Virus record (IMG/VR): IMGVR_UViG_3300028533_000484
Span: 64,001 to 128,000 of that record
Reading direction: 5' to 3' (one strand)
Length of the DNA stretch: 64,000 bases
Source of the DNA: a virus
Taxonomy: Duplodnaviria; Caudoviricetes
In this document: one piece after another, positions 3,198-36,111 of the stretch
Numbering within the stretch: position 1 is the stretch's first letter
Layout: each line of letters begins with the position of its first letter
Notes under the pieces: generated by a model
The model's input: only the letters and a program-made list of their open reading frames with translations
The model's database searches: none
Told to the model about the DNA's origin: nothing
Translations under genes and position numbers: made by a program

Positions 3198-3207
3198 ATT
3201 CCTATCT

Positions 3208-3849
3208 TTAAGTATTTTCTAGAATTCTATTCTTTGGCATTTTTCTACTTGCAATAATTCTTGCAGTTGGATAAATCTCGTCATAAAGGCTATCCTCGAA
3301 TTCTGGTTTATCTAAATCATAATCATTCAATAATGGAAAAGACTTAATCAATCTTCTAACATTGTCAGGTATATCATCTCTGTACTCGAGTAAATATGCA
3401 AAGTTGCGAGCAATTCTTTCTGCTTGACCAGGTTTAGGTCGATCTAAACTATTTACCAAGCAATCTGCAGCTTTCACTAAAAGTGCAGAAGGACTTAACT
3501 CCAAAAGCTCTCGATTTATATATTCCTCTTTTCCTAACCTATCCACTTCAGGTTGAAAGTTTGTTACTTCCTCTACAATTTGGGCAACTGTTGGTCCGTA
3601 AATAGCTTCTAACTCTTCTGCAGTTGTATCTGTATCTTCCAAAGTATCGTGTAAAAGAGCTGCTTCTATTTCTGTAGCTGTTCCACCATAGGCAGCAACA
3701 ACTTCAGCTACCATTTCAGGATGCACGAAATATGGCTGACCAGATCCTCTACGAACCATTCCAGTATCATCGTGTTTACGTTTAGCAAAACTATAAGCAT
3801 ATTGTAATTGTGGATTTTCAATCATAGGGTTTTCAACTAATCTTTGCAT
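3208..3849 (-). CDS. HD-domain (p)ppGpp hydrolase-like protein (SpoT hydrolase / Mesh1 / SAH family)
   Basis: AxxxH...RRGSGQPYFVHP...AALLHDTLEDT...VEEVT...VKAAD...N motifs. Confidence 0.85.
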   Translation of the reverse strand: MQRLVENPMIENPQLQYAYSFAKRKHDDTGMVRRGSGQPYFVHPEMVAEVVAAYGGTATEIEAALLHDTLEDTDTTAEELEAIYGPTVAQIVEEVTNFQPEVDRLGKEEYINRELLELSPSALLVKAADCLVNSLDRPKPGQAERIARNFAYLLEYRDDIPDNVRRLIKSFPLLNDYDLDKPEFEDSLYDEIYPTARIIASRKMPKNRILENT

Positions 3850-28357: not shown

Positions 28358-28429
28358 GCATCTATAGCTTAATGGATAAAGCTTCTACCTCCTAAGTAGA
28401 GGATGCAGGTTCGATTCCTACTAGGTGCT
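28358..28429 (+). tRNA. tRNA-Arg(CCT)
   Basis: Cloverleaf; TCTAC-CTCCTAA-GTAGA. Confidence 0.9.
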
Positions 28430-28530
28430 AAAGGTTGGCAGTCAAACCTTTAAGACTCCATTTTTTCTTCTGGAAATATTTTGATTTATTTTCAGAAGAA
28501 AATTAAACTTATAACAAGTGAGGTACAGAA

Positions 28531-28692
28531 TTGGAAAGATTGGAAAGAATTGTAGATTGGCTTTTCGATACACATGATAAGGTTTTGTTTGTTGAAGATA
28601 TTAGTGGTTTTGGAGCTCTATTTCTTTTTGGAACTATGATTTTTGTTGCTGTGTTGTGTTGCAGCAAAAAGCTCAGAAGCAAGTTCTTTTAG
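28531..28692 (+). CDS. small membrane protein (53 aa, not in ORF track)
   Basis: GAGGT RBS, TTG start, hydrophobic segment. Confidence 0.5.
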   Translation: MERLERIVDWLFDTHDKVLFVEDISGFGALFLFGTMIFVAVLCCSKKLRSKFF

Positions 28693-28750
28693 GTGAATTT
28701 TTCAGATTGCACTAACTATATTACAAGCATAAATTGAAGGAGTAGATATC

Positions 28751-28861
28751 ATGACAAAGACATTTGTAACATCTAATAACATGACAAGTTCTTATCAATG
28801 CTGTGATACTATCCAATATTCATATTGTTCGTCAATCTATTTTAGAGGTGACAACAGTTGA
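28751..28861 (+). CDS. leader peptide 1 (36 aa) MTKTFVTSNNMTSSYQCCDTIQYSYCSSIYFRGDNS
   Basis: Promoter motif 28695-28722, GAAGGAG RBS, stop overlaps antiterminator arm. Confidence 0.75.
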   Translation: MTKTFVTSNNMTSSYQCCDTIQYSYCSSIYFRGDNS

Positions 28862-28923
28862 CCTTGTGCAAATAAAAAATGTTTGAAGAGTTGCACAGGG
28901 TTCCTAGAAATAGGAACTTTTTT
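28860..28923 (+). promoter_or_regulatory. attenuator 1: antiterminator (28860-28871/28891-28902) competing with terminator (28897-28923)
   Basis: GACCTTGTGCAA pairs TTGCACAGGGTT; AGGGTTCCTA-GAAA-TAGGAACTTT-TTT. Confidence 0.75.
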
Positions 28924-28940
28924 ATTCTTCAAACAAGTTT

Positions 28941-29021
28941 GGGTCAGTCGAGCAATTGGTTGCTCAGCGGACTGTAAATCCGTGGCCTATGGCATTGGGG
29001 GTTCGAATCCCTCCTGGCCCA
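28941..29021 (+). tRNA. tRNA-Tyr(GTA)
   Basis: Cloverleaf with variable arm; GCGGA-CTGTAAA-TCCGT. Confidence 0.92.
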
Positions 29022-29116
29022 ATATCACATTAAATCAACCAGTTTGTGAAAAGAGTTAATTTTTTTAACTATAATTAAATTATTAGCACTAATTAATTAA
29101 AGAAGGAGAAAAGATT

Positions 29117-29260
29117 ATGAAAAATTTTGTAACAAAACATTCGAACATAATTACAAAACAGATGTGTCAATCTGCTCTCCATACACTTTGCAATATTTTT
29201 GCTGACTCTGATTTTCAAACTAATGGGAAAGTGAAATGCGAAGGAGACTTCAAGTCTTGA
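29117..29260 (+). CDS. leader peptide 2 (47 aa) MKNFVTKHSNIITKQMCQSALHTLCNIFADSDFQTNGKVKCEGDFKS
   Basis: Promoter motif 29048-29075, GAAGGAG RBS, last codons and stop form antiterminator arm. Confidence 0.75.
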   Translation: MKNFVTKHSNIITKQMCQSALHTLCNIFADSDFQTNGKVKCEGDFKS

Positions 29261-29321
29261 GATAATTAATAATTTAGTTATTTACAAGGCTTGAATCGAA
29301 AAGGTTCAAGCCTTTTATTTT
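29249..29321 (+). promoter_or_regulatory. attenuator 2: antiterminator (29249-29295) competing with terminator (29286-29321)
   Basis: TTCAAGTCTTG pairs CAAGGCTTGAA; AAGGCTTGAATC-GAAAA-GGTTCAAGCCTT-TTATTTT. Confidence 0.8.
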
Positions 29322-29325
29322 GCTT

Positions 29326-29398
29326 AGGATGTTAGTACACCGGTTTAGTATTTTAGTCTGATAAACTAAAGAAAGAAGTTCAACTCTTCTACATCCTA
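29326..29398 (+). tRNA. tRNA-Ile(GAT)
   Basis: AGGATGT/ACATCCT acceptor; TTAGT-CTGATAA-ACTAA. Confidence 0.85.
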
Positions 29399-29402
29399 TA
29401 TA

Positions 29403-29629
29403 GTTAAACAAAAGCGTCGATTAAAACTGGTTCGAGTAATTGAGGTAACGTTCAGTAAATGAAAGAACAAAGATAATAACGGACTGAGGTAGAAACATTG
29501 TCAATCTTGGGTGTCCTGCCCGTCAGAAGAGTAATACTCTTCTTCAAGAATAAGGTGACGGATTGATGGTGTTGAAGGTTGGCTGGAGACGGCAGCGATA
29601 AATCCAGTTGAGTTTGACTTATTTTTAAC
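29403..29629 (+). ncRNA. candidate structured ncRNA (~225 nt)
   Basis: Ends pair (AACTGG/CCAGTT, GTTAAA/TTTAAC); inner CCGTCA/TGACGG and GAAGAG/CTCTTC. Confidence 0.45.
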
Positions 29630-29696
29630 ATTTTTTATGAAACAGCAATTAGCTTTTCAACTATAATATATATGTTAAAAATATTAAATTATTTAT

Positions 29697-29770
29697 AGTT
29701 CCATAGAACAACAGGTCCAGTTCACGGCCCTTTCAAGGCTGAGATCCGAGTTCAAGTCTCGGTGGAACTA
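29697..29770 (+). tRNA. tRNA-Glu(TTC)
   Basis: CGGCC-CTTTCAA-GGCTG; own promoter motif at 29639-29667. Confidence 0.9.
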
Positions 29771-29970
29771 AAGCTTATGTTCCTAACGGTTCGACTCCGT
29801 ATGAAAATCTTGAACTGTATAAGTGCGGTATAAGCCCGATGAGATGTCAAGATATAAACGGCATAGGAAAGGAAGCATCTGACTTAAGGTTTCAGGATAC
29901 AGTAGTAAACCTAGCGAAGTAGCGAAGGCCAAGTGAAAAGCGAACTCTTGCAAGAATCCCTTATAATGGG

Positions 29971-30051
29971 TGAAAGTTATAGTATAATGGAAATACAACA
30001 GCCGAGGTTATCTGGGCTGGAGATTGAAGGTTCGAGTCCTTCTGACTTTCA
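29971..30051 (+). ncRNA. tRNA-like RNA with aberrant anticodon arm
   Basis: Acceptor, D and T arms intact; CAGCC-GAGGTTATCTG-GGCTG (11-nt loop). Confidence 0.7.
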
Positions 30052-30056
30052 TATTT

Positions 30057-30130
30057 GCATCAGTAGCTCAGTTGGTTAGAGCGCCTGCCTTCCAAGCAGG
30101 ATGTCGAGGGTTCGAGCCCCTTCTGGTGCT
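30057..30130 (+). tRNA. tRNA-Gly(TCC)
   Basis: CCTGC-CTTCCAA-GCAGG. Confidence 0.95.
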
Positions 30131-30132
30131 CT

Positions 30133-30298
30133 AGGTGCAGCAATGCCGTGGATAGCACGTTACTAGGACTAATCTAATTGTACAAAGGAATTAGCCAGAG
30201 GATATGGTAACATACCTCGTTCTACGACTAGGTTGTTAAGGATGTTATACCTGACGTGAGACAGCCATAAAGGTTTCGTTTAGAAGATTGCTGCACCT
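30133..30298 (+). ncRNA. candidate structured ncRNA (166 nt)
   Basis: Perfect 12-bp closing stem AGGTGCAGCAAT/ATTGCTGCACCT with internal hairpins. Confidence 0.55.
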
Positions 30299-30373
30299 TT
30301 AAGCAGGTTGAAACGAATAGAAACTGAATCGAAAGATTCTAATGTAGGAGTAAGCACAAGAAGCTTATTGCAT

Positions 30374-30446
30374 GGGATATTGGTAAAATGGTGCATACGC
30401 CTGACTGTCACTCAGGAGAGCGCGAGTTCAATTCTCGCATATCCCG
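30374..30446 (+). tRNA. tRNA-Asp(GTC)
   Basis: CCTGA-CTGTCAC-TCAGG. Confidence 0.9.
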
Positions 30447-30455
30447 TTTTTTCTT

Positions 30456-30551
30456 GGACTGGTCGTATAGAGGTCAATTACAGGAGGAATGCGGTCCATT
30501 GGACCAAAGCCTCCTGCCATAGCTACGTAGGTTCGAATCCTACCCAGTCCG
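30456..30551 (+). ncRNA. tRNA-like RNA with hairpin inserted in the anticodon loop
   Basis: GGACTGG/CCAGTCC acceptor, perfect T arm; GGAGG-AATGC-GGTCC-ATT-GGACC-AAAG-CCTCC. Confidence 0.7.
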
Positions 30552-30560
30552 TAATGCATT

Positions 30561-30634
30561 GGAGTGTTAGCTCAGTTGGTAGTAGCAAGCGGCTGTTAAC
30601 CGCTAGGTCGCAGGTTCGAGTCCTGCACACTCCG
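30561..30634 (+). tRNA. tRNA-Asn(GTT)
   Basis: AGCGG-CTGTTAA-CCGCT. Confidence 0.95.
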
Positions 30635-30642
30635 AAAACCTT

Positions 30643-30710
30643 AACATCTTACCTTTATGGTCCTAGGGCTGTAATGTTAGGTGGGGACCACCGGAGATGT
30701 TCCTAACATT
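30643..30710 (+). ncRNA. compact pseudoknotted element
   Basis: AACATCTT/GAGATGTT, TGGTCCT/GGGACCA, loop AATGTTAGG pairs CCTAACATT. Confidence 0.55.
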
Positions 30711-30717
30711 GTTTTAT

Positions 30718-30790
30718 GCTACCTTAGCAAAATGGCTAATGCGCGTGATTTGTAATCTCGAGATTGTGGGTTCGAGTCCTACAGGTAGCT
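30718..30790 (+). tRNA. tRNA-Thr(TGT)
   Basis: CGTGA-TTTGTAA-TCTCG (one stem mismatch). Confidence 0.88.
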
Positions 30791-30792
30791 TT

Positions 30793-30865
30793 CGCGGATG
30801 GGTGAAACGGAATTCATGCCAGCCTCATAAGCTGAAGATAGCAGGTTCGACTCCTGTATCCGCAA
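30793..30865 (+). tRNA. tRNA-Met(CAT), initiator-like (C1:A72)
   Basis: CGCGGAT/ATCCGCA; CCAGC-CTCATAA-GCTGA. Confidence 0.85.
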
Positions 30866-30867
30866 TA

Positions 30868-30995
30868 AAAACATTTAGCGGTTTGTGAAAGTGGAAGGCA
30901 TTCCTTTGGACGACATGAAAGTCATAGCAAATCATAATCGAAACTGGTAAGCCTTAGCGCTGAGTACACTTACCGTTGAGTAGGCTAAATGTTTT
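30868..30995 (+). ncRNA. candidate structured ncRNA (128 nt)
   Basis: Perfect 12-bp closing stem AAAACATTTAGC/GCTAAATGTTTT; inner GGTAAG/CTTACC. Confidence 0.5.
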
Positions 30996-30999
30996 ACAT

Positions 31000-31071
31000 C
31001 GCCTGTTACCCAAGCAGTAAGGGAGCGGTCTGCAAAACCGTAATTCATAGGTGCAAATCCTATACAGGTGT
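31000..31071 (+). tRNA. tRNA-Cys(GCA)
   Basis: GCGGT-CTGCAAA-ACCGT, U73. Confidence 0.9.
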
Positions 31072-31075
31072 CTAA

Positions 31076-31231
31076 GGAATGGTAGCTTAGTCAAAAATAG
31101 TTTAGAAACTGCGCTGGCCGGTCGGCGGTTATAAATACTGAATTATTCAGTGTTAGGAAGCCTAAATGAAATATGCAGGAAAAGCGCTAACGAAACGTTA
31201 GAGAGTGTAAGTTCGAATCTTACCTATTCCT
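31076..31231 (+). ncRNA. tRNA-like RNA with ~90-nt D-loop insertion and collapsed anticodon loop
   Basis: GGAATGG/CTATTCC, GCTT/AAGC, CTAACG-AAA-CGTTAG, GTAAG-TTCGAAT-CTTAC. Confidence 0.65.
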
Positions 31232-31298
31232 TGAGGTAGATATAGGTGTTCGGTGCAAGTCCGGATTTAAGATAGTCAAGCCTTAAGCTACCATAAAA

Positions 31299-31505
31299 GT
31301 GGAGACTTCTGTGACTATACAGAAAACTATAGCAACATCTCAGCCAAGTGTTAATAATTGCTCTTTAGATAGTAAAATCGAAAGAGCTTATATGAAAGGC
31401 GCGCTTGCAATGTATGAGTTTTTGCAAGAAGAAAAATTAGTGCCTATTATAACAACTGGGTGTCAAGAAATGTTATGGAAAAAGTTTAAGGAAAAGAATA
31501 GCTAA
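31299..31505 (+). CDS. small hypothetical protein
   Basis: ORF between RNA genes; start uncertain. Confidence 0.5.
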   Translation: METSVTIQKTIATSQPSVNNCSLDSKIERAYMKGALAMYEFLQEEKLVPIITTGCQEMLWKKFKEKNS

Positions 31506-31566
31506 TTCGCATGCTTTCTTGATATATTGGATTACAGGTCTATGAAAATGACTTGTTTTTTTACAT

Positions 31567-31638
31567 TCCTCCATAGTGTAGTTGGTAGCACTTGAGAATT
31601 TGGGTCTCACAGGCTGGGTTCGAGTCCTAGCGGAGGAA
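31567..31638 (+). tRNA. tRNA-Gln(TTG)
   Basis: TGAGA-ATTTGGG-TCTCA. Confidence 0.88.
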
Positions 31639-31640
31639 AT

Positions 31641-31701
31641 AAAGCAAAGGTTGTTCCTATTAAAAGTTATTTTATTGGAAAAATTGTGTACAACCCGCTT
31701 T
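31641..31701 (+). repeat. GTTGTTCCTATT...TACAAC motif copy 1
   Basis: Conserved with 34987-35062 and 35394-35470. Confidence 0.7.
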
Positions 31702-31707
31702 AATTTT

Positions 31708-31780
31708 GGGCTGTTCGTATATCGGCTTATTACACGGGCTTTGCAAGCCTGATAGAGGGGTTCAACTCCCCTACGGTCCA
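31708..31780 (+). tRNA. tRNA-Ala(TGC)
   Basis: G3:U70 pair; CGGGC-TTTGCAA-GCCTG. Confidence 0.92.
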
Positions 31781-31810
31781 CTAAAAAAGTCTTCTGTTAG
31801 AAGATTTTAT

Positions 31811-31892
31811 GGGTTTGTGTTGGAATTGGTATACATCGGGGTCTTAGAAGCCTCGGCCGAAAGGATTGAGAGTTCGAGTCTCTCCAAGCCCA
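31811..31892 (+). tRNA. tRNA-Leu(TAG)
   Basis: GGGGT-CTTAGAA-GCCTC, variable arm. Confidence 0.9.
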
Positions 31893-31896
31893 TCAT

Positions 31897-31968
31897 CCAA
31901 ACTTGGTGTCAGCGGTAGCACAGCGGACTGAAGATCCGTTAGCTGGGGTTCAAATCCCTGAGTTTGGA
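31897..31968 (+). tRNA. tRNA-Phe(GAA)
   Basis: GCGGA-CTGAAGA-TCCGT. Confidence 0.85.
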
Positions 31969-31975
31969 CTAATAT

Positions 31976-32048
31976 GTTGAAGAAGTTCATACGGTTGAAC
32001 GCTGCCCTCATAAGGCAGATGTAGTAGGTCCGAATCCTGCCTTCAGCA
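31976..32048 (+). tRNA. tRNA-Met(CAT), elongator (or Ile2 if lysidine-modified)
   Basis: CTGCC-CTCATAA-GGCAG. Confidence 0.85.
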
Positions 32049-32050
32049 AT

Positions 32051-32123
32051 GTACCCATAGTGTTAGTGGTTAGCACGGAAGATTGTGGATCTTCAAGGTC
32101 GGGTTCAAATCCCGATGGGCACC
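32051..32123 (+). tRNA. tRNA-His(GTG)
   Basis: GAAGA-TTGTGGA-TCTTC, C73. Confidence 0.9.
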
Positions 32124-32130
32124 TTTATTT

Positions 32131-32166
32131 GGAAAGTTGGCACAGCGGCGACTGCAACGGTCTTGA
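32131..32166 (+). pseudogene. 5' half of a tRNA-Ser(TGA), truncated just after the anticodon
   Basis: GGAAAGT-TG-GCAC-AGCGGCGAC-TGC-A-ACGGT-CT-TGA then unrelated T-rich sequence. Confidence 0.75.
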
Positions 32167-32187
32167 TTCTTTTTTACCAATTAATGT

Positions 32188-32928
32188 ATGGGAAGAATTA
32201 AAGATACAGAAAAGATTTTACAAAATGCTAAAGAAGGTAATTGTATTTTCTGCAGCAAAGTTTGCAAAAATCAAAATAGCTTTAGGCAGCATCAAGTACG
32301 TTGTAAGTACAATCCAAATAGAAGAGCTATATGGTTGCACAACGATGTTTGGAGAGCTTCTGTTAAGAATAGAAAAGTAGCTGTACAGGTAAAAGATCAG
32401 TTTATTTGTAAATTTTGTAAAAAATGTTGGCTTACTACTGTAAGCGGTTATAAAAATCATGAACTGCATTGCAGAGAGAATCCTTGCAGAAAAGCAGGAT
32501 CCTTTACAGGCAGAACTGTTTCGGAAGAAACTAAAAAGAAAATCTCTGCGACAGGTAAGAGTCGAAAATCCTTAGGAGGATATCGATTTGGAAGTGGTAG
32601 AGGTAAAAAAGGAACATATAAGGGTTATTATTGTGATTCATCTTGGGAACTCGCTTATGTGATTTTCAATCTTGAACATAATATAAAGTTTGAAAGAAAC
32701 GAAGAACTTTTTCCTTATGAGTTTAATGATGAACAGCATAAATATAAGCCTGATTTTATTGAAGGCGACATTTATGTTGAAGTAAAAGGGTATTATACTG
32801 AACAAGTCAATGCAAAGACAAAAGCCTTTCCTTATAAACTTAAGTTCCTTGATAAAGAGACAATTAAGCCGTATATTGACTATGTTGTATCAAAATATGG
32901 TCAAGATTATATACGACTTTATGAATAA
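32188..32928 (+). CDS. free-standing homing-type endonuclease (two Cys/His fingers, NUMOD3-like motif, PD-(D/E)XK domain)
   Basis: CIFC..HQVRC, CKFC..HELHC, VSEETKKKIS, DSSWE...YKPDF...YVEVKG. Confidence 0.8.
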   Translation: MGRIKDTEKILQNAKEGNCIFCSKVCKNQNSFRQHQVRCKYNPNRRAIWLHNDVWRASVKNRKVAVQVKDQFICKFCKKCWLTTVSGYKNHELHCRENPCRKAGSFTGRTVSEETKKKISATGKSRKSLGGYRFGSGRGKKGTYKGYYCDSSWELAYVIFNLEHNIKFERNEELFPYEFNDEQHKYKPDFIEGDIYVEVKGYYTEQVNAKTKAFPYKLKFLDKETIKPYIDYVVSKYGQDYIRLYE

Positions 32929-33019
32929 GGAAGTGTTGAGCAGTTGGTAGCTCTCCTGACTTGAAATCAGGCGATTGCCTTGGAAAGGCGTCATGCAGGT
33001 TCGAATCCTGTCGCTTCCG
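32929..33019 (+). tRNA. tRNA-Ser(TGA)
   Basis: CCTGA-CTTGAAA-TCAGG, long variable arm, G73. Confidence 0.92.
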
Positions 33020-33053
33020 TAAATCTTTGTTGTAATTAAATATAAAGATTTTA

Positions 33054-33240
33054 ATAGAACTTGCAACACTTAGAGGCATTAAAGTTTTGAACTCGTCACT
33101 CAAGACTGCTGCTCAAAGAGATGATGAAGCTCGTGTCCCACGGCAAGTCTATAATGGTGATTCACAGTAGCCACTCAACTTCATCAGAGAAAAGAATCCC
33201 GCCGAGTAGGACGTTCGATACAGATTCTGAGTACTGTGAA
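33054..33240 (+). ncRNA. two adjacent stem-closed candidate ncRNA domains
   Basis: ATAGAACTTGC/GCAAGTCTAT and TTCACAGTA/TACTGTGAA. Confidence 0.4.
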
Positions 33241-33244
33241 ACAA

Positions 33245-33317
33245 TGGACTCGTGCTCGATGGTTTTGAGCAACGGTCTTATAAGCCGTCACACAGAGTTC
33301 AATTCTCTGGGGTCCTA
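33245..33317 (+). tRNA. tRNA-Ile(TAT)
   Basis: ACGGT-CTTATAA-GCCGT; U1:U72 mismatch. Confidence 0.8.
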
Positions 33318-33429
33318 AAAAACGAGTTAAGGAATATAATATGAAGAAGAAACAGAGGCCTTAACTTTCTGTTCAAGTCCATTGGAATAGAAAGTGGCCA
33401 GATTAAATGGAAACACAATTTATTTTAAT

Positions 33430-33506
33430 GGACCGTTAGCTCAGTCTGGGTTAAGAGCAATGCCCTTTTAAGGCGTGGGTCGTGAGTTCGAATCTCACAC
33501 GGTTCA
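33430..33506 (+). tRNA. tRNA-Lys(TTT) copy 1
   Basis: ATGCC-CTTTTAA-GGCGT. Confidence 0.93.
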
Positions 33507-33511
33507 ACCTT

Positions 33512-33586
33512 CTACCCGTGACGCAGTCTGGTTAGCGTACAAAACTTTTAATTTTGGGGTCGTGAGTTCGAATCTCACCGGGTAGA
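33512..33586 (+). tRNA. tRNA-Lys(TTT) copy 2
   Basis: CAAAA-CTTTTAA-TTTTG. Confidence 0.9.
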
Positions 33587-33590
33587 CTAC

Positions 33591-33662
33591 CCGCTTATAA
33601 CTCAACGGTAGAGTGGCGAACTCTTAATTCGCAGGTTCTCAGTTCAAATCTGAGTAGGCGGA
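33591..33662 (+). tRNA. tRNA-Lys(CTT)
   Basis: GCGAA-CTCTTAA-TTCGC. Confidence 0.93.
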
Positions 33663-33676
33663 CTTTTATAAAAAAT

Positions 33677-33749
33677 ATGAGTATGGTATAATGGATAGTG
33701 CCTTTGGCTACGAACCAAATGAATGGGAGTTCGATTCTCTCTACTCACA
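33677..33749 (+). tRNA. tRNA-Arg(ACG)
   Basis: TTTGG-CTACGAA-CCAAA. Confidence 0.85.
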
Positions 33750-33755
33750 CAATTT

Positions 33756-33827
33756 CGTTCTCTAACTCAATGGTGGAGTGCCGCTTTTACACAGCGGAGG
33801 TTGTAGGTTCAAGTCCTACGGGAACGA
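33756..33827 (+). tRNA. tRNA-Val(TAC)
   Basis: CCGCT-TTTACAC-AGCGG. Confidence 0.92.
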
Positions 33828-33834
33828 CTTTAGG

Positions 33835-34239
33835 TGTCAAAGTAACTTAAAAGGGTTTGACAAAATCGATACGACCAGAGCACTGCTGCAGCGTCCCTCC
33901 TGGTTTTGTGTAGGCCTAAAACTATATTTTTGATATAAAGGTGTGCTCTGACCTAGCTTAGATTAGGTGTGAAGGGATAATCTAGCGACAACAAAATGTT
34001 GTAAGAACTAAAGAGAATTTATGCAGTAGTTACTAAAAGTATGACGGTTAAGTGGATGTTCCGCTTCCGTAGAACTGCCAAGGCACGAATCTACAACTCA
34101 AGTAGTTGTATTTATCAGTAAAGGTGATTAAAAGAAAAGCATAATTTTAATCTGATTTTAATATCAAACCAAGACCTTGCAGGCGGGTGTGTGCATTACG
34201 AGCACCCTAAGCGGCTTCACCGCATCGGGCATTTTTTTT
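33835..34239 (+). ncRNA. ORF-free structured region, one or more candidate ncRNAs
   Basis: TGTCAAA/TTTGACA, CAGAGCAC/GTGCTCTG, TACAACT/AGTTGTA, GGGTG/CACCC hairpins, ends in T-run. Confidence 0.4.
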
Positions 34240-34429
34240 GAAAACTATAATGAAATAAAAACCTGTAAGGTAATAGATGTGACAGTCTAGGAAGTAATCA
34301 GGTGTTTTCTAGCTTTCGTAAACTAGATATTGGAGTGCTACGTAAGTTATAGATATGAATTTATGTATGTGGAAGCTTCCTAAATTCTTTATTTATAACA
34401 TGCCAAGAAGTCGAAACAGTAGCAATTTT

Positions 34430-34503
34430 GGTCTATTGGAGAAGTTGGAGTACTCGCCTGACTGTCACTCAGGAAATCACAGGTTCAAGTCCCGTATAGA
34501 CCG
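34430..34503 (+). tRNA. tRNA-Asp(GTC) copy 2
   Basis: CCTGA-CTGTCAC-TCAGG. Confidence 0.9.
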
Positions 34504-34531
34504 TAATCAAAAGCTTGTACGAGGTATAAAA

Positions 34532-34699
34532 ATGAAAGTTTTGAAAAAAATATTTCTTTTCATTAAAAAAGCTTTTTTAATTTTAACCGAAGAAAACCCA
34601 AAAGACAAGAATTGTTTAAATTGTGGTTGGAGAAATTCTAAAGATAGATATGCTTGCAAATTGTGTAGTCCAACAGATTTATCTGAATGGATTCCGTAA
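34532..34699 (+). CDS. 55-aa Cys-containing protein (start moved from 34355)
   Basis: GAGGT RBS before ATG 34532; CLNC...CKLC; the longer frame overlaps tRNA-Asp. Confidence 0.6.
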   Translation: MKVLKKIFLFIKKAFLILTEENPKDKNCLNCGWRNSKDRYACKLCSPTDLSEWIP

Positions 34700-34731
34700 G
34701 CGAAAACTATATTAATACCAATAATATAAAT

Positions 34732-34804
34732 GACTGTGTAGCTCAACTGGATGAGCACAAACCTTCTAAGTTTGCGGATGCAGGTTCGAATCCTGTCACA
34801 GTTA
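34732..34804 (+). tRNA. tRNA-Arg(TCT)
   Basis: CAAAC-CTTCTAA-GTTTG. Confidence 0.92.
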
Positions 34805-34806
34805 AA

Positions 34807-34980
34807 TAAAGAATGTATACCTCTATTGCTACGAGTCTATGGAATTCCTCGTTGAAATAAAAAGGTAGTACTTGGGGGAACATTGAGAGTTCGATGATGG
34901 TATAATTCTCTCTGAACTGATGAGGAAGGATTCAGTTGAGTTGACTAGCAGATAGCAATCTAGTCTCAATTCCTTTTACA
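34807..34980 (+). ncRNA. duplicated ~175-nt structured RNA, copy A
   Basis: Near-identical to 35939-36111, with a compensatory change. Confidence 0.65.
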
Positions 34981-34986
34981 AGAGTG

Positions 34987-35062
34987 AAGTGCATAGGTTG
35001 TTCCTATTTAAAAGCTACTTAGGGCTCGTAAGGGCTCTGCCATTTTTATACAACTCGCACTT
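34987..35062 (+). repeat. GTTGTTCCTATT...TACAAC motif copy 2
   Basis: Closed by AAGTGC/GCACTT. Confidence 0.7.
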
Positions 35063-35072
35063 TTTATTTTAC

Positions 35073-35143
35073 TCCTCCGTAGTGTAATGGTAGCACGCGA
35101 GATTCTGGTTCTTAAAGTGAGGGTTCGAATCCTTCCGGAGGAA
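35073..35143 (+). tRNA. tRNA-Gln(CTG)
   Basis: GAGA-TTCTGGT-TCTT; TCCTCCG/CGGAGGA. Confidence 0.9.
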
Positions 35144-35276
35144 AGCACATTTGCAGAGGCCTACTAGCAAAATTGAGGAACGGCAATTCCAATAGATTAG
35201 CGAAAAATGGTTGTAGGGACAAGCTCATACCGTTGCCGCGAATGAGTGAGAGTGAGTTCAACTCCCGCTAGGTGCT
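35144..35276 (+). ncRNA. candidate RNA ending in a T-arm/acceptor-like module
   Basis: AGCAC/GTGCT ends, GTTCAACTC T-loop, CGGCAA/TTGCCG potential pseudoknot. Confidence 0.4.
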
Positions 35277-35286
35277 CTTTTTATAT

Positions 35287-35367
35287 CGGTCTGTGGTGTA
35301 ATTGGCAGCCACGCATGACTTAGGATCATGTGTCTTTGACGTGAGAGTTCGAGTCTCTCCAGGCCGA
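35287..35367 (+). tRNA. tRNA-Leu(TAG) copy 2
   Basis: CATGA-CTTAGGA-TCATG, variable arm. Confidence 0.9.
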
Positions 35368-35376
35368 CTACTTAAA

Positions 35377-35856: not shown

Positions 35857-35938
35857 CTTTAACAAAATGGCCAGGGAGCCCTAACGGATGCTGGGCGGCT
35901 TAATGATGTTACTGAATGGTGGTAACCCATTTTGTTTA

Positions 35939-36111
35939 TAAAGAATGTATACCTCTATTGCTACGAGTCTATGGAATTCCTCGTTGAAATAAAAAAGCAA
36001 TACTTGGGGGAGCGTTGTGAGTTCGATGAAGGTTAACTCTCTCTGAACCGATGAAGGAAGGATTCGGGAGATTTGACTAGCAGATAGCAATCTAGTCTTA
36101 ATTCCTTTACA
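35939..36111 (+). ncRNA. duplicated ~175-nt structured RNA, copy B
   Basis: See copy A. Confidence 0.65.

Follow-up and report, generated by a model that had tools for sequence, protein, structure and literature searches.

What is probably an intron-less homing cassette, composed of a nuclease gene and a complete cargo tRNA-Ser, follows directly on the anticodon of an older tRNA-Ser(UGA) gene within a huge-phage tRNA array. The array lies in a window of 64,000 nt, bases 64001-128000 of the 140-kb IMG/VR virus record IMGVR_UViG_3300028533_000484. Completeness of the record was judged to be 35%, so its source would be a phage of several hundred kb. The locus occupies positions 32131-33019 of the window, and the mobile cassette is best explained as 32167-33019 (853 bp), comprising leader, endonuclease gene and cargo tRNA-Ser(UGA). 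This reading is based on the insertion site, the occurrence of empty and occupied alleles, the absence of an intron, the conserved catalytic motif and purifying selection of the nuclease, the intact cargo tRNA, the mosaicism of the cassettes and their recurrence across tRNA species. Cleavage of the DNA at the site, copying of the cassette by repair, and resistance of the cargo gene to cutting would complete the cycle.

All parts of the locus are encoded on the + strand. Positions 32131-32166 form an orphan 5' half of the older tRNA-Ser(UGA) (tRNA positions 1-36), which runs through the acceptor strand, the D arm and the anticodon stem strand into the loop, its last base being the last base of the anticodon TGA. 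It is followed by an A/T-rich spacer of 21 nt (32167-32187), which forms the left end of the cassette and the leader of the open reading frame (ORF); homologous spacers stand after the junction in relatives. The endonuclease ORF (32188-32928, stop codon included) encodes 246 aa, starting with ATG at 32188 and ending with TAA at 32926-32928. On the base directly after the stop codon starts the cargo tRNA-Ser(UGA) (32929-33019), which is complete, has a long variable arm and G73, and was identified by ARAGORN and by Rfam (54.5 bits; gathering score for tRNA, 29); the cassette ends on the right with the 3' end of this tRNA. The 21 nt are the only bases of the insert outside the ORF and the tRNA. 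A preliminary description of this DNA, made from the sequence alone, had reported the 5' half ending exactly after the anticodon, the zinc-finger/NUMOD3/PD-(D/E)XK ORF 21 nt further on and the complete, divergent tRNA-Ser(TGA) abutting its stop codon, and all three were confirmed.

The orphan half agrees at 35/37 bases with positions 1-37 of an intact tRNA-Ser(UGA) in contig L099 (E 4e-11, in a search of the whole 140-kb record), and at 28/31 with positions 6-36 of the tRNA of contigs L009/L010, the similarity ending exactly past the anticodon. Its sequence diverges throughout from that of the cargo tRNA-Ser, and the old 5' acceptor strand is unable to pair with the 3' strand of the cargo (3/7 mismatches). 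The half is a non-functional remnant or a homology arm. Neither the window nor the 140-kb record as a whole contains a matching 3' half; short-word BLAST with the intact tRNA returned only generic T-loop matches inside other tRNAs. The Rfam models of group I and group II introns gave no match in 31900-33400 at E up to 10, and neither did any other non-tRNA family. The lack of a 3' half and of a group I core had also been pointed out in the earlier account; relatives do retain a 3' remnant. The whole record has 35 tRNA genes with a single tRNA-Ser(tga). A group I intron in the tRNA anticodon loop is rejected given the lack of an Rfam intron match and of a 3' exon in the record. An integrase-mediated element in a tRNA gene is rejected as well, because the 853-bp cassette contains the nuclease ORF and the tRNA only; in addition, the leftover is a 5' half and not a duplicated 3' attachment repeat.

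Empty and occupied forms of the same locus were found among related phages. The exact 36-nt half has no match in IMG/VR and a degenerate 30-nt pattern was required; this degenerate search identified intact tRNA-Ser genes without the ORF in IMG/VR contigs L009 and L010 and in metagenome contigs L098 and L099. L009, L010 and L098 share the gene order Cys-Ala-Gly(tcc)-Ser-Phe-Val-Lys. The same order is found in L007/L008, with flanks 99% (left) and 90% (right) identical, where 835 bp take the place of the 207 bp (Ser, spacer, Phe) of the empty allele and contain a truncated remnant, a family ORF of 208 aa, a tRNA-Ser similar to the window cargo and a divergent tRNA-Phe. The order of L099, Tyr-Ser-Cys-Tyr-Leu-Gly, is common to L003 and L004-L006, in which the Ser gene is split into positions 1-36, a spacer, an ORF 68-83% identical to that of the window, a different complete tRNA-Ser(tga), and then old positions 56 or 60 to 86; positions 37-55 or 37-59 are missing in L003 and L004. 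Compared side by side, the L004 remnants show no difference from the intact gene of L099, and they agree with the L010 tRNA at 30/32 and 26/27 bases. In L003 and L004, the two remnants pair with each other across all 7 acceptor pairs and show a compensatory A-T versus G-C pair relative to L009, hence they derive from one once-functional gene. Presence/absence polymorphism at one site with conserved flanks is thus seen between L009, L010, L098 and L099 (empty) and L007/L008 and L003-L006 (occupied), and every carrier examined has the old tRNA interrupted after position 36. The preliminary description had proposed a search for related phages in which the tRNA is unbroken and the ORF missing. Such phages came up in two tRNA-Ser comparisons where gene order is conserved (L009/L010/L098 versus L007/L008, and L099 versus L003-L006) and in one for tRNA-Ile (L068 versus L041, described below). 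In the more distant relatives L019 (= L013; 3098-3130) and L021 (= L014; 2927-2960), an orphan tRNA 3' fragment, consisting of the T arm and the acceptor strand, stands directly after the stop codon, where a whole tRNA sits elsewhere.

The cassettes and their remnants have different histories. Between the window and L004 or L003, synonymous divergence (dS) of the ORF is about 2 (saturating) and 0.6, respectively, and the 5' remnants are 94% and 89% identical; the remnants of the window, L003 and L004 are all close to the intact gene of cassette-free contigs. Since the remnants are 89-94% identical despite large ORF dS, they are much younger than the ORF lineages, as expected if cassettes repeatedly enter one conserved, selected target. 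The cassettes are also mosaic. Window positions 32125-32928 resemble L003 (85%) with the similarity ending at the stop codon, whereas 32521-33019 resemble L007 (89%) up to the last base of the cargo tRNA; this last base (33019) can be taken as the right end of the element because homology to L007 stops exactly there. Older remnants have decayed in L007, L016 and L017, which argues against a need for them as RNA. In L016 (= L011), a 3' remnant at 3201-3245 lies behind a different cargo tRNA-Ser and resembles the window-type cargo and not the ancestral type, suggesting serial replacement, in which one cassette would have displaced the tRNA of an earlier one.

The same design occurs in tRNA-Ile(GAU). 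The two remnants in L041 correspond to positions 1-36 and 37-75 of the intact tRNA-Ile(GAU) of L068, with 97% and 100% identity, and T36 and A37 directly flank a clean insert of 750 bp. In this insert a 15-nt leader is followed by the ORF and by a divergent tRNA-Ile that provides the stop codon with its first bases; L058 is equivalent. At these loci both halves are complete and the insert is exactly at 36|37, a position also used by bacterial tRNA group I introns, which would fit a split or intron-like tRNA. In such a case the old tRNA would be rebuilt as RNA from its 5' and 3' halves, with RNase P and RNase Z excising the embedded tRNA and a nuclease/ligase pair joining the halves. This is very unlikely, given that the ORF fills the insert, that no intron model of Rfam matches L003, L004, L041 or L058 at E up to 1, that L003 and L004 lack the positions after the anticodon, that the window is without any 3' half, and that remnants decay in L007, L016 and L017. 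The recurrence of the layout also bears on the idea that a normal tRNA, an unrelated ORF and a tRNA pseudogene in decay came to stand side by side by chance, or that the layout is an artefact of assembly. Since the three-part layout with the same junction recurs in independent assemblies (IMG/VR, Logan, ENA, and GenBank) and in two tRNA identities, either explanation has a negligible probability.

The ORF is a candidate free-standing homing endonuclease gene, and it resides neither in a self-splicing intron nor in an intein. It encodes two beta-beta-alpha zinc fingers, Cys-X2-Cys-X12-His-X3-Cys (32236-32472, + strand; residues 17-39 and 72-95), a NUMOD3-like linker motif (32500-32547, + strand; residues 105-120; PF07460 E 0.019, below cut-off) and a PD-(D/E)XK nuclease domain (32575-32925, + strand; residues 130-246) with E154, D189, E198 and K200. 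In a profile of 32 homologues, D189 and K200 are invariant and E198 is at least 90% conserved, giving a PD...ExK motif, and C19, C22 and H35 of the N-terminal finger are nearly invariant. The profile matches T7 endonuclease I structures (E 8e-5, about 46 residues) as well as C2H2 finger structures. An AlphaFold model (mean predicted local distance difference test score, pLDDT, 82) shows both fingers as beta-beta-alpha units, together with a linker made of helices and, at residues 140-246, an alpha/beta domain. With the multi-domain model, Foldseek found no match in PDB at E 0.001 or better; the fold of residues 130-246 matches TnsA, Bax1, the homing endonuclease I-Bth0305I, Vsr and VRR-NUC with moderate Z scores of 5.0-5.7, and the top range of the domain-level structure aligner was Z 5-6.6. 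The two Cys-X2-Cys-X12-His-X3-Cys units conform to the C2H2-type finger (Cys-X2-Cys...His-X3-His/Cys on a beta-beta-alpha fold), and the conserved catalytic motif together with the restriction-endonuclease-like fold places the enzyme in the PD-(D/E)XK superfamily. PHROGs label the families of the ORF 'endonuclease'. No GIY-YIG family is among its Pfam or PHROG matches, which leaves it outside the SegB type. The zinc fingers are presumed to be the DNA-recognition module, and this module differs in number and sequence among relatives. The gene is kept functional by purifying selection, because the nonsynonymous to synonymous divergence (dN/dS) is 0.10/0.61 versus the L003 homologue (ratio about 0.16) and 0.23/2.15 versus the L004 homologue (ratio about 0.1).

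An enzyme acting on RNA has also been considered, namely an anticodon nuclease directed against the tRNA-Ser(UGA) of the host type or of a competitor, with the linked tRNA as a resistant substitute in a toxin/antidote-like pair. The tight and ancient linkage of ORF and tRNA, the junction exactly at the anticodon, and the presence of tRNA-splicing endonucleases among weak fold matches (Z 3-4) are compatible with this idea. Those fold matches to RNA enzymes are at noise level, while zinc fingers, NUMOD3 and a T7-endonuclease-I-like core are DNA-binding or DNA-cutting modules and what is found broken is the genes and hence DNA; an RNA target is accordingly given very little credence.

The homing cycle would start in a cell that contains phage genomes both with and without the cassette, where the nuclease cuts the DNA of the intact tRNA-Ser gene at or near the anticodon loop. 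The break would then be repaired from the cassette-bearing genome, with the tRNA halves and the neighbouring array sequence serving as homology arms, and the leader-ORF-tRNA unit would be copied in. The split target would be immune to further cutting and, with no ribozyme to restore it, the divergent cargo tRNA-Ser would supply the lost decoding. Intronless homing by target destruction with a replacement isoacceptor had been put forward in the preliminary description, and it is supported by the empty and occupied alleles, the absence of a ribozyme, the conserved nuclease and the cargo being the sole tRNA-Ser(UGA).

Several points weigh against this cycle. The cut site, and DNA and not RNA as the substrate, are deduced from domain content and insertion site. 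The Pfam matches of the protein are all under the curated cut-offs: Phage_endo_I (PF05367) scores 19 bits versus 29.1, indicating a related core but not a member by the curated cut-off, NUMOD3 (PF07460) scores 15.3 bits versus 20.4 in the window protein, although it is listed for many homologues, and zf-C2H2_jaz is likewise below its threshold. Target and cargo have an identical 7-nt anticodon loop and differ at 6/10 anticodon-stem bases, therefore the putative resistance of the cargo to cutting must rest on the stems. The window lacks the 3' remnant, and the gene upstream of the half is tRNA-His in place of the Tyr or Gly of the empty-site loci, so the half-gene may have arrived with the cassette rather than been broken in this genome; for L007, it is clear that the cassette brought the decayed remnant along. 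Finally, even heavily decayed remnants keep GTCTTGA|TT. L026, L039 and L044 have a complete tRNA-Ser(tga) upstream and a very short decayed remnant before the ORF that still keeps AGTCTTGA|TT, and in these loci the junction motif has outlived the rest of the half-gene. Its retention hints at a function of the junction itself, which the homing model does not explain. We would guess that the junction may double as a control element, by analogy with the autorepression of I-TevI.

The ORF belongs to a large, so far unnamed zinc-finger/PD-(D/E)XK family living in phage tRNA arrays. Protein searches identified 576 relatives, and at least 256 were found in IMG/VR by tblastn-confirmed scans; relatives are also present in Lak megaphages and other huge phages. 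Family-wide counts were taken over 70 distinct ORFs. Nearly all (65/70) lie within 1.5 kb of tRNA genes, and for 33/70 a tRNA on the same strand starts no more than 60 nt ahead of the stop codon or 10 nt past it. These 33 cargo tRNAs are mostly tRNA-Ser (24/33; tga 18, gga 4, aga 2), followed by Ile gat (3), Phe (2), and Met, Pro, Gly and Leu (1 each), so that anticodon GGA or AGA is carried by the cargo of some relatives. The junction CTTGA|T occurs within 110 nt upstream of 24/70 ORFs compared to 3.9% of background windows, and is usually preceded by a recognisable tRNA-Ser 5' half, the halves varying widely in sequence.

Distant relatives (28-31% identical) were found inside the tRNA gene cluster of some T4-like coliphages, including vB_Eco_F25 (L100 2446-3218), HEMP5, IME341 (L101) and EcWhh-1. 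The coliphage protein has 219 aa, and the final 38 nt of its gene overlap tRNA-Arg(tct). Upstream lies a remnant-like stretch resembling a tRNA anticodon arm and ending in the anticodon TCT; it is present only in the five ORF-bearing phages, and an intact counterpart was not found. The tRNA-Arg case is thus unproven. T4-like coliphages could possibly provide a culturable model. A second, distant family member is encoded about 7 kb upstream of the window start (G000:C1:56880-57437; profile E 1e-13); it has no zinc fingers and lies outside any tRNA array.

The near confinement of the family to tRNA arrays, the long-term purifying selection on the ORF and the T4-like relative in a coliphage tRNA gene cluster would also be in line with a domesticated nuclease that promotes recombination, amplification or turnover of tRNA genes for the benefit of the phage, for instance against tRNA-cleaving host defences, the broken tRNA being a by-product. 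A precedent is SegB, which causes tRNA segments to be amplified and is enriched in the neighbourhood of tRNAs (PMC13096335). A selfish insertion, on the other hand, has its signature in split targets and presence/absence polymorphism, and no benefit to the phage is apparent in the present data. Domestication is considered unlikely as a separate explanation, and it overlaps with homing by the cassette rather than excluding it.

Self-splicing introns and inteins are thought to be the refuges that let homing endonucleases persist in essential genes. The tRNA cassette offers a third solution for an RNA gene, which is to break it and bring a spare. It accounts for part of the disorder of tRNA arrays in huge phages, with their orphan halves, duplicate isoacceptors and shuffled order, and represents a force spreading particular tRNA alleles between phages, which is relevant as phage tRNAs are now seen as counter-defence genes. 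The enzyme is a natural fusion of zinc fingers and a nuclease with modular N-terminal fingers, whose rules of site choice could interest genome engineers, and the idea is open to bench tests through the distant relatives in T4-like coliphages, which can be cultured. More tentatively, and with somewhat less than even expectation, the cassette can be read as one member of a large family, so far undescribed, of natural zinc-finger nucleases that would behave as gene drives against the tRNA genes of phages. Swappable fingers would retarget one PD-(D/E)XK core to Ser UGA, Ile GAU and perhaps, in T4-like coliphages, Arg UCU; the insertion would always be at 36/37, and the cargo tRNA welded to the stop codon would pay for the destroyed gene. 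The upstream half-site GTCTTGA|TT may then be the operator of the enzyme itself. If true, gene-drive nucleases would be a main engine of tRNA-gene turnover in huge-phage arrays and of the tRNA fragments that litter them.

The array around the cassette has 27 tRNA genes at 28358-35368, all on the + strand (ARAGORN). The upstream neighbour, outside the cassette, is tRNA-His(GTG) at 32051-32123 (+ strand; ARAGORN; Rfam 48.9 bits), separated by 7 nt from the orphan Ser half; in related cassettes this neighbour varies and may be Tyr, Gly or Pro. Searches of GenBank phages found zero DNA similarity to 31900-33400. A conserved intergenic repeat of about 90 nt is dispersed in the arrays, at window positions 33845-33935 (after tRNA-Val) and in L099 (1478-1546), L003 (about 1870-1960) and L004 (4997-5065), and follows Ser or Cys tRNAs in relatives; it is possibly a small RNA or a processing signal. 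The copy after tRNA-Val was considered as the displaced right flank of the old tRNA-Ser, and this was rejected since a dispersed repeat is uninformative on gene order. Another element of about 170 nt occurs twice in the window (34808-34966 and 35927-36099), both copies matching, at about 85% identity, a single stretch in each of L099 (3008-3180) and L004 (6470-6642) that adjoins tRNA-Gln(ctg). In related arrays, ARAGORN called suppressor-type tRNAs (anticodons tta and cta) and four-base anticodons (taga and gtga), at L014 4228-4312, L082, L015 1029-1105 and L099 2168-2244, which hint at recoding in some related phages.

The combination of a free-standing homing endonuclease with a replacement gene is of a kind already known, while no paper describing this layout for phage tRNA genes was found. 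SegB of T4 is a free-standing GIY-YIG homing endonuclease of the tRNA cluster, recognising a T-loop motif and carrying tRNA genes along (PMC2330249). The cassette shares with SegB of T4/T6 the position of a free-standing nuclease gene inside a phage tRNA array. SegB, however, is encoded between tRNA genes, whereas the zinc-finger/PD-(D/E)XK enzyme is encoded inside a tRNA gene just past the anticodon, destroys that gene and supplies a whole substitute. T4 presumably keeps segB where the family member of the coliphages sits. I-Ssp6803I, not among the listed sequence or fold matches of the ORF, is reportedly a PD-(D/E)XK homing endonuclease of a cyanobacterial tRNA-fMet group I intron. Both enzymes are of the PD-(D/E)XK class and both elements interrupt a tRNA anticodon loop, but there a self-splicing ribozyme repairs the tRNA, and here a spare gene takes the place of a ribozyme. 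Fractured genes, in which free-standing homing endonuclease genes split protein genes that are rescued by split inteins (PMC2677866), are similar in having a homing endonuclease gene within an essential gene and a separate device to restore function. There, rescue is by protein trans-splicing of the halves, which in the present cassette are abandoned. The closest published design is that of mobile ORFs in fungal mitochondria (Allomyces atp6; Glomus atp6, atp9, cox2, and nad3), which bring a foreign 3' end and orphan the native one (PMC3630166). As in the phage cassette, an intron-less endonuclease ORF is inserted in an essential gene together with a divergent replacement, and the native part is orphaned and unused. 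The fungal ORFs encode LAGLIDADG or GIY-YIG enzymes and reside in mitochondrial protein genes, replacing only the 3' end in frame, whereas the target in the phage is a tRNA gene that is replaced as a whole, and the orphan is the 5' half, accompanied in relatives by a 3' piece.

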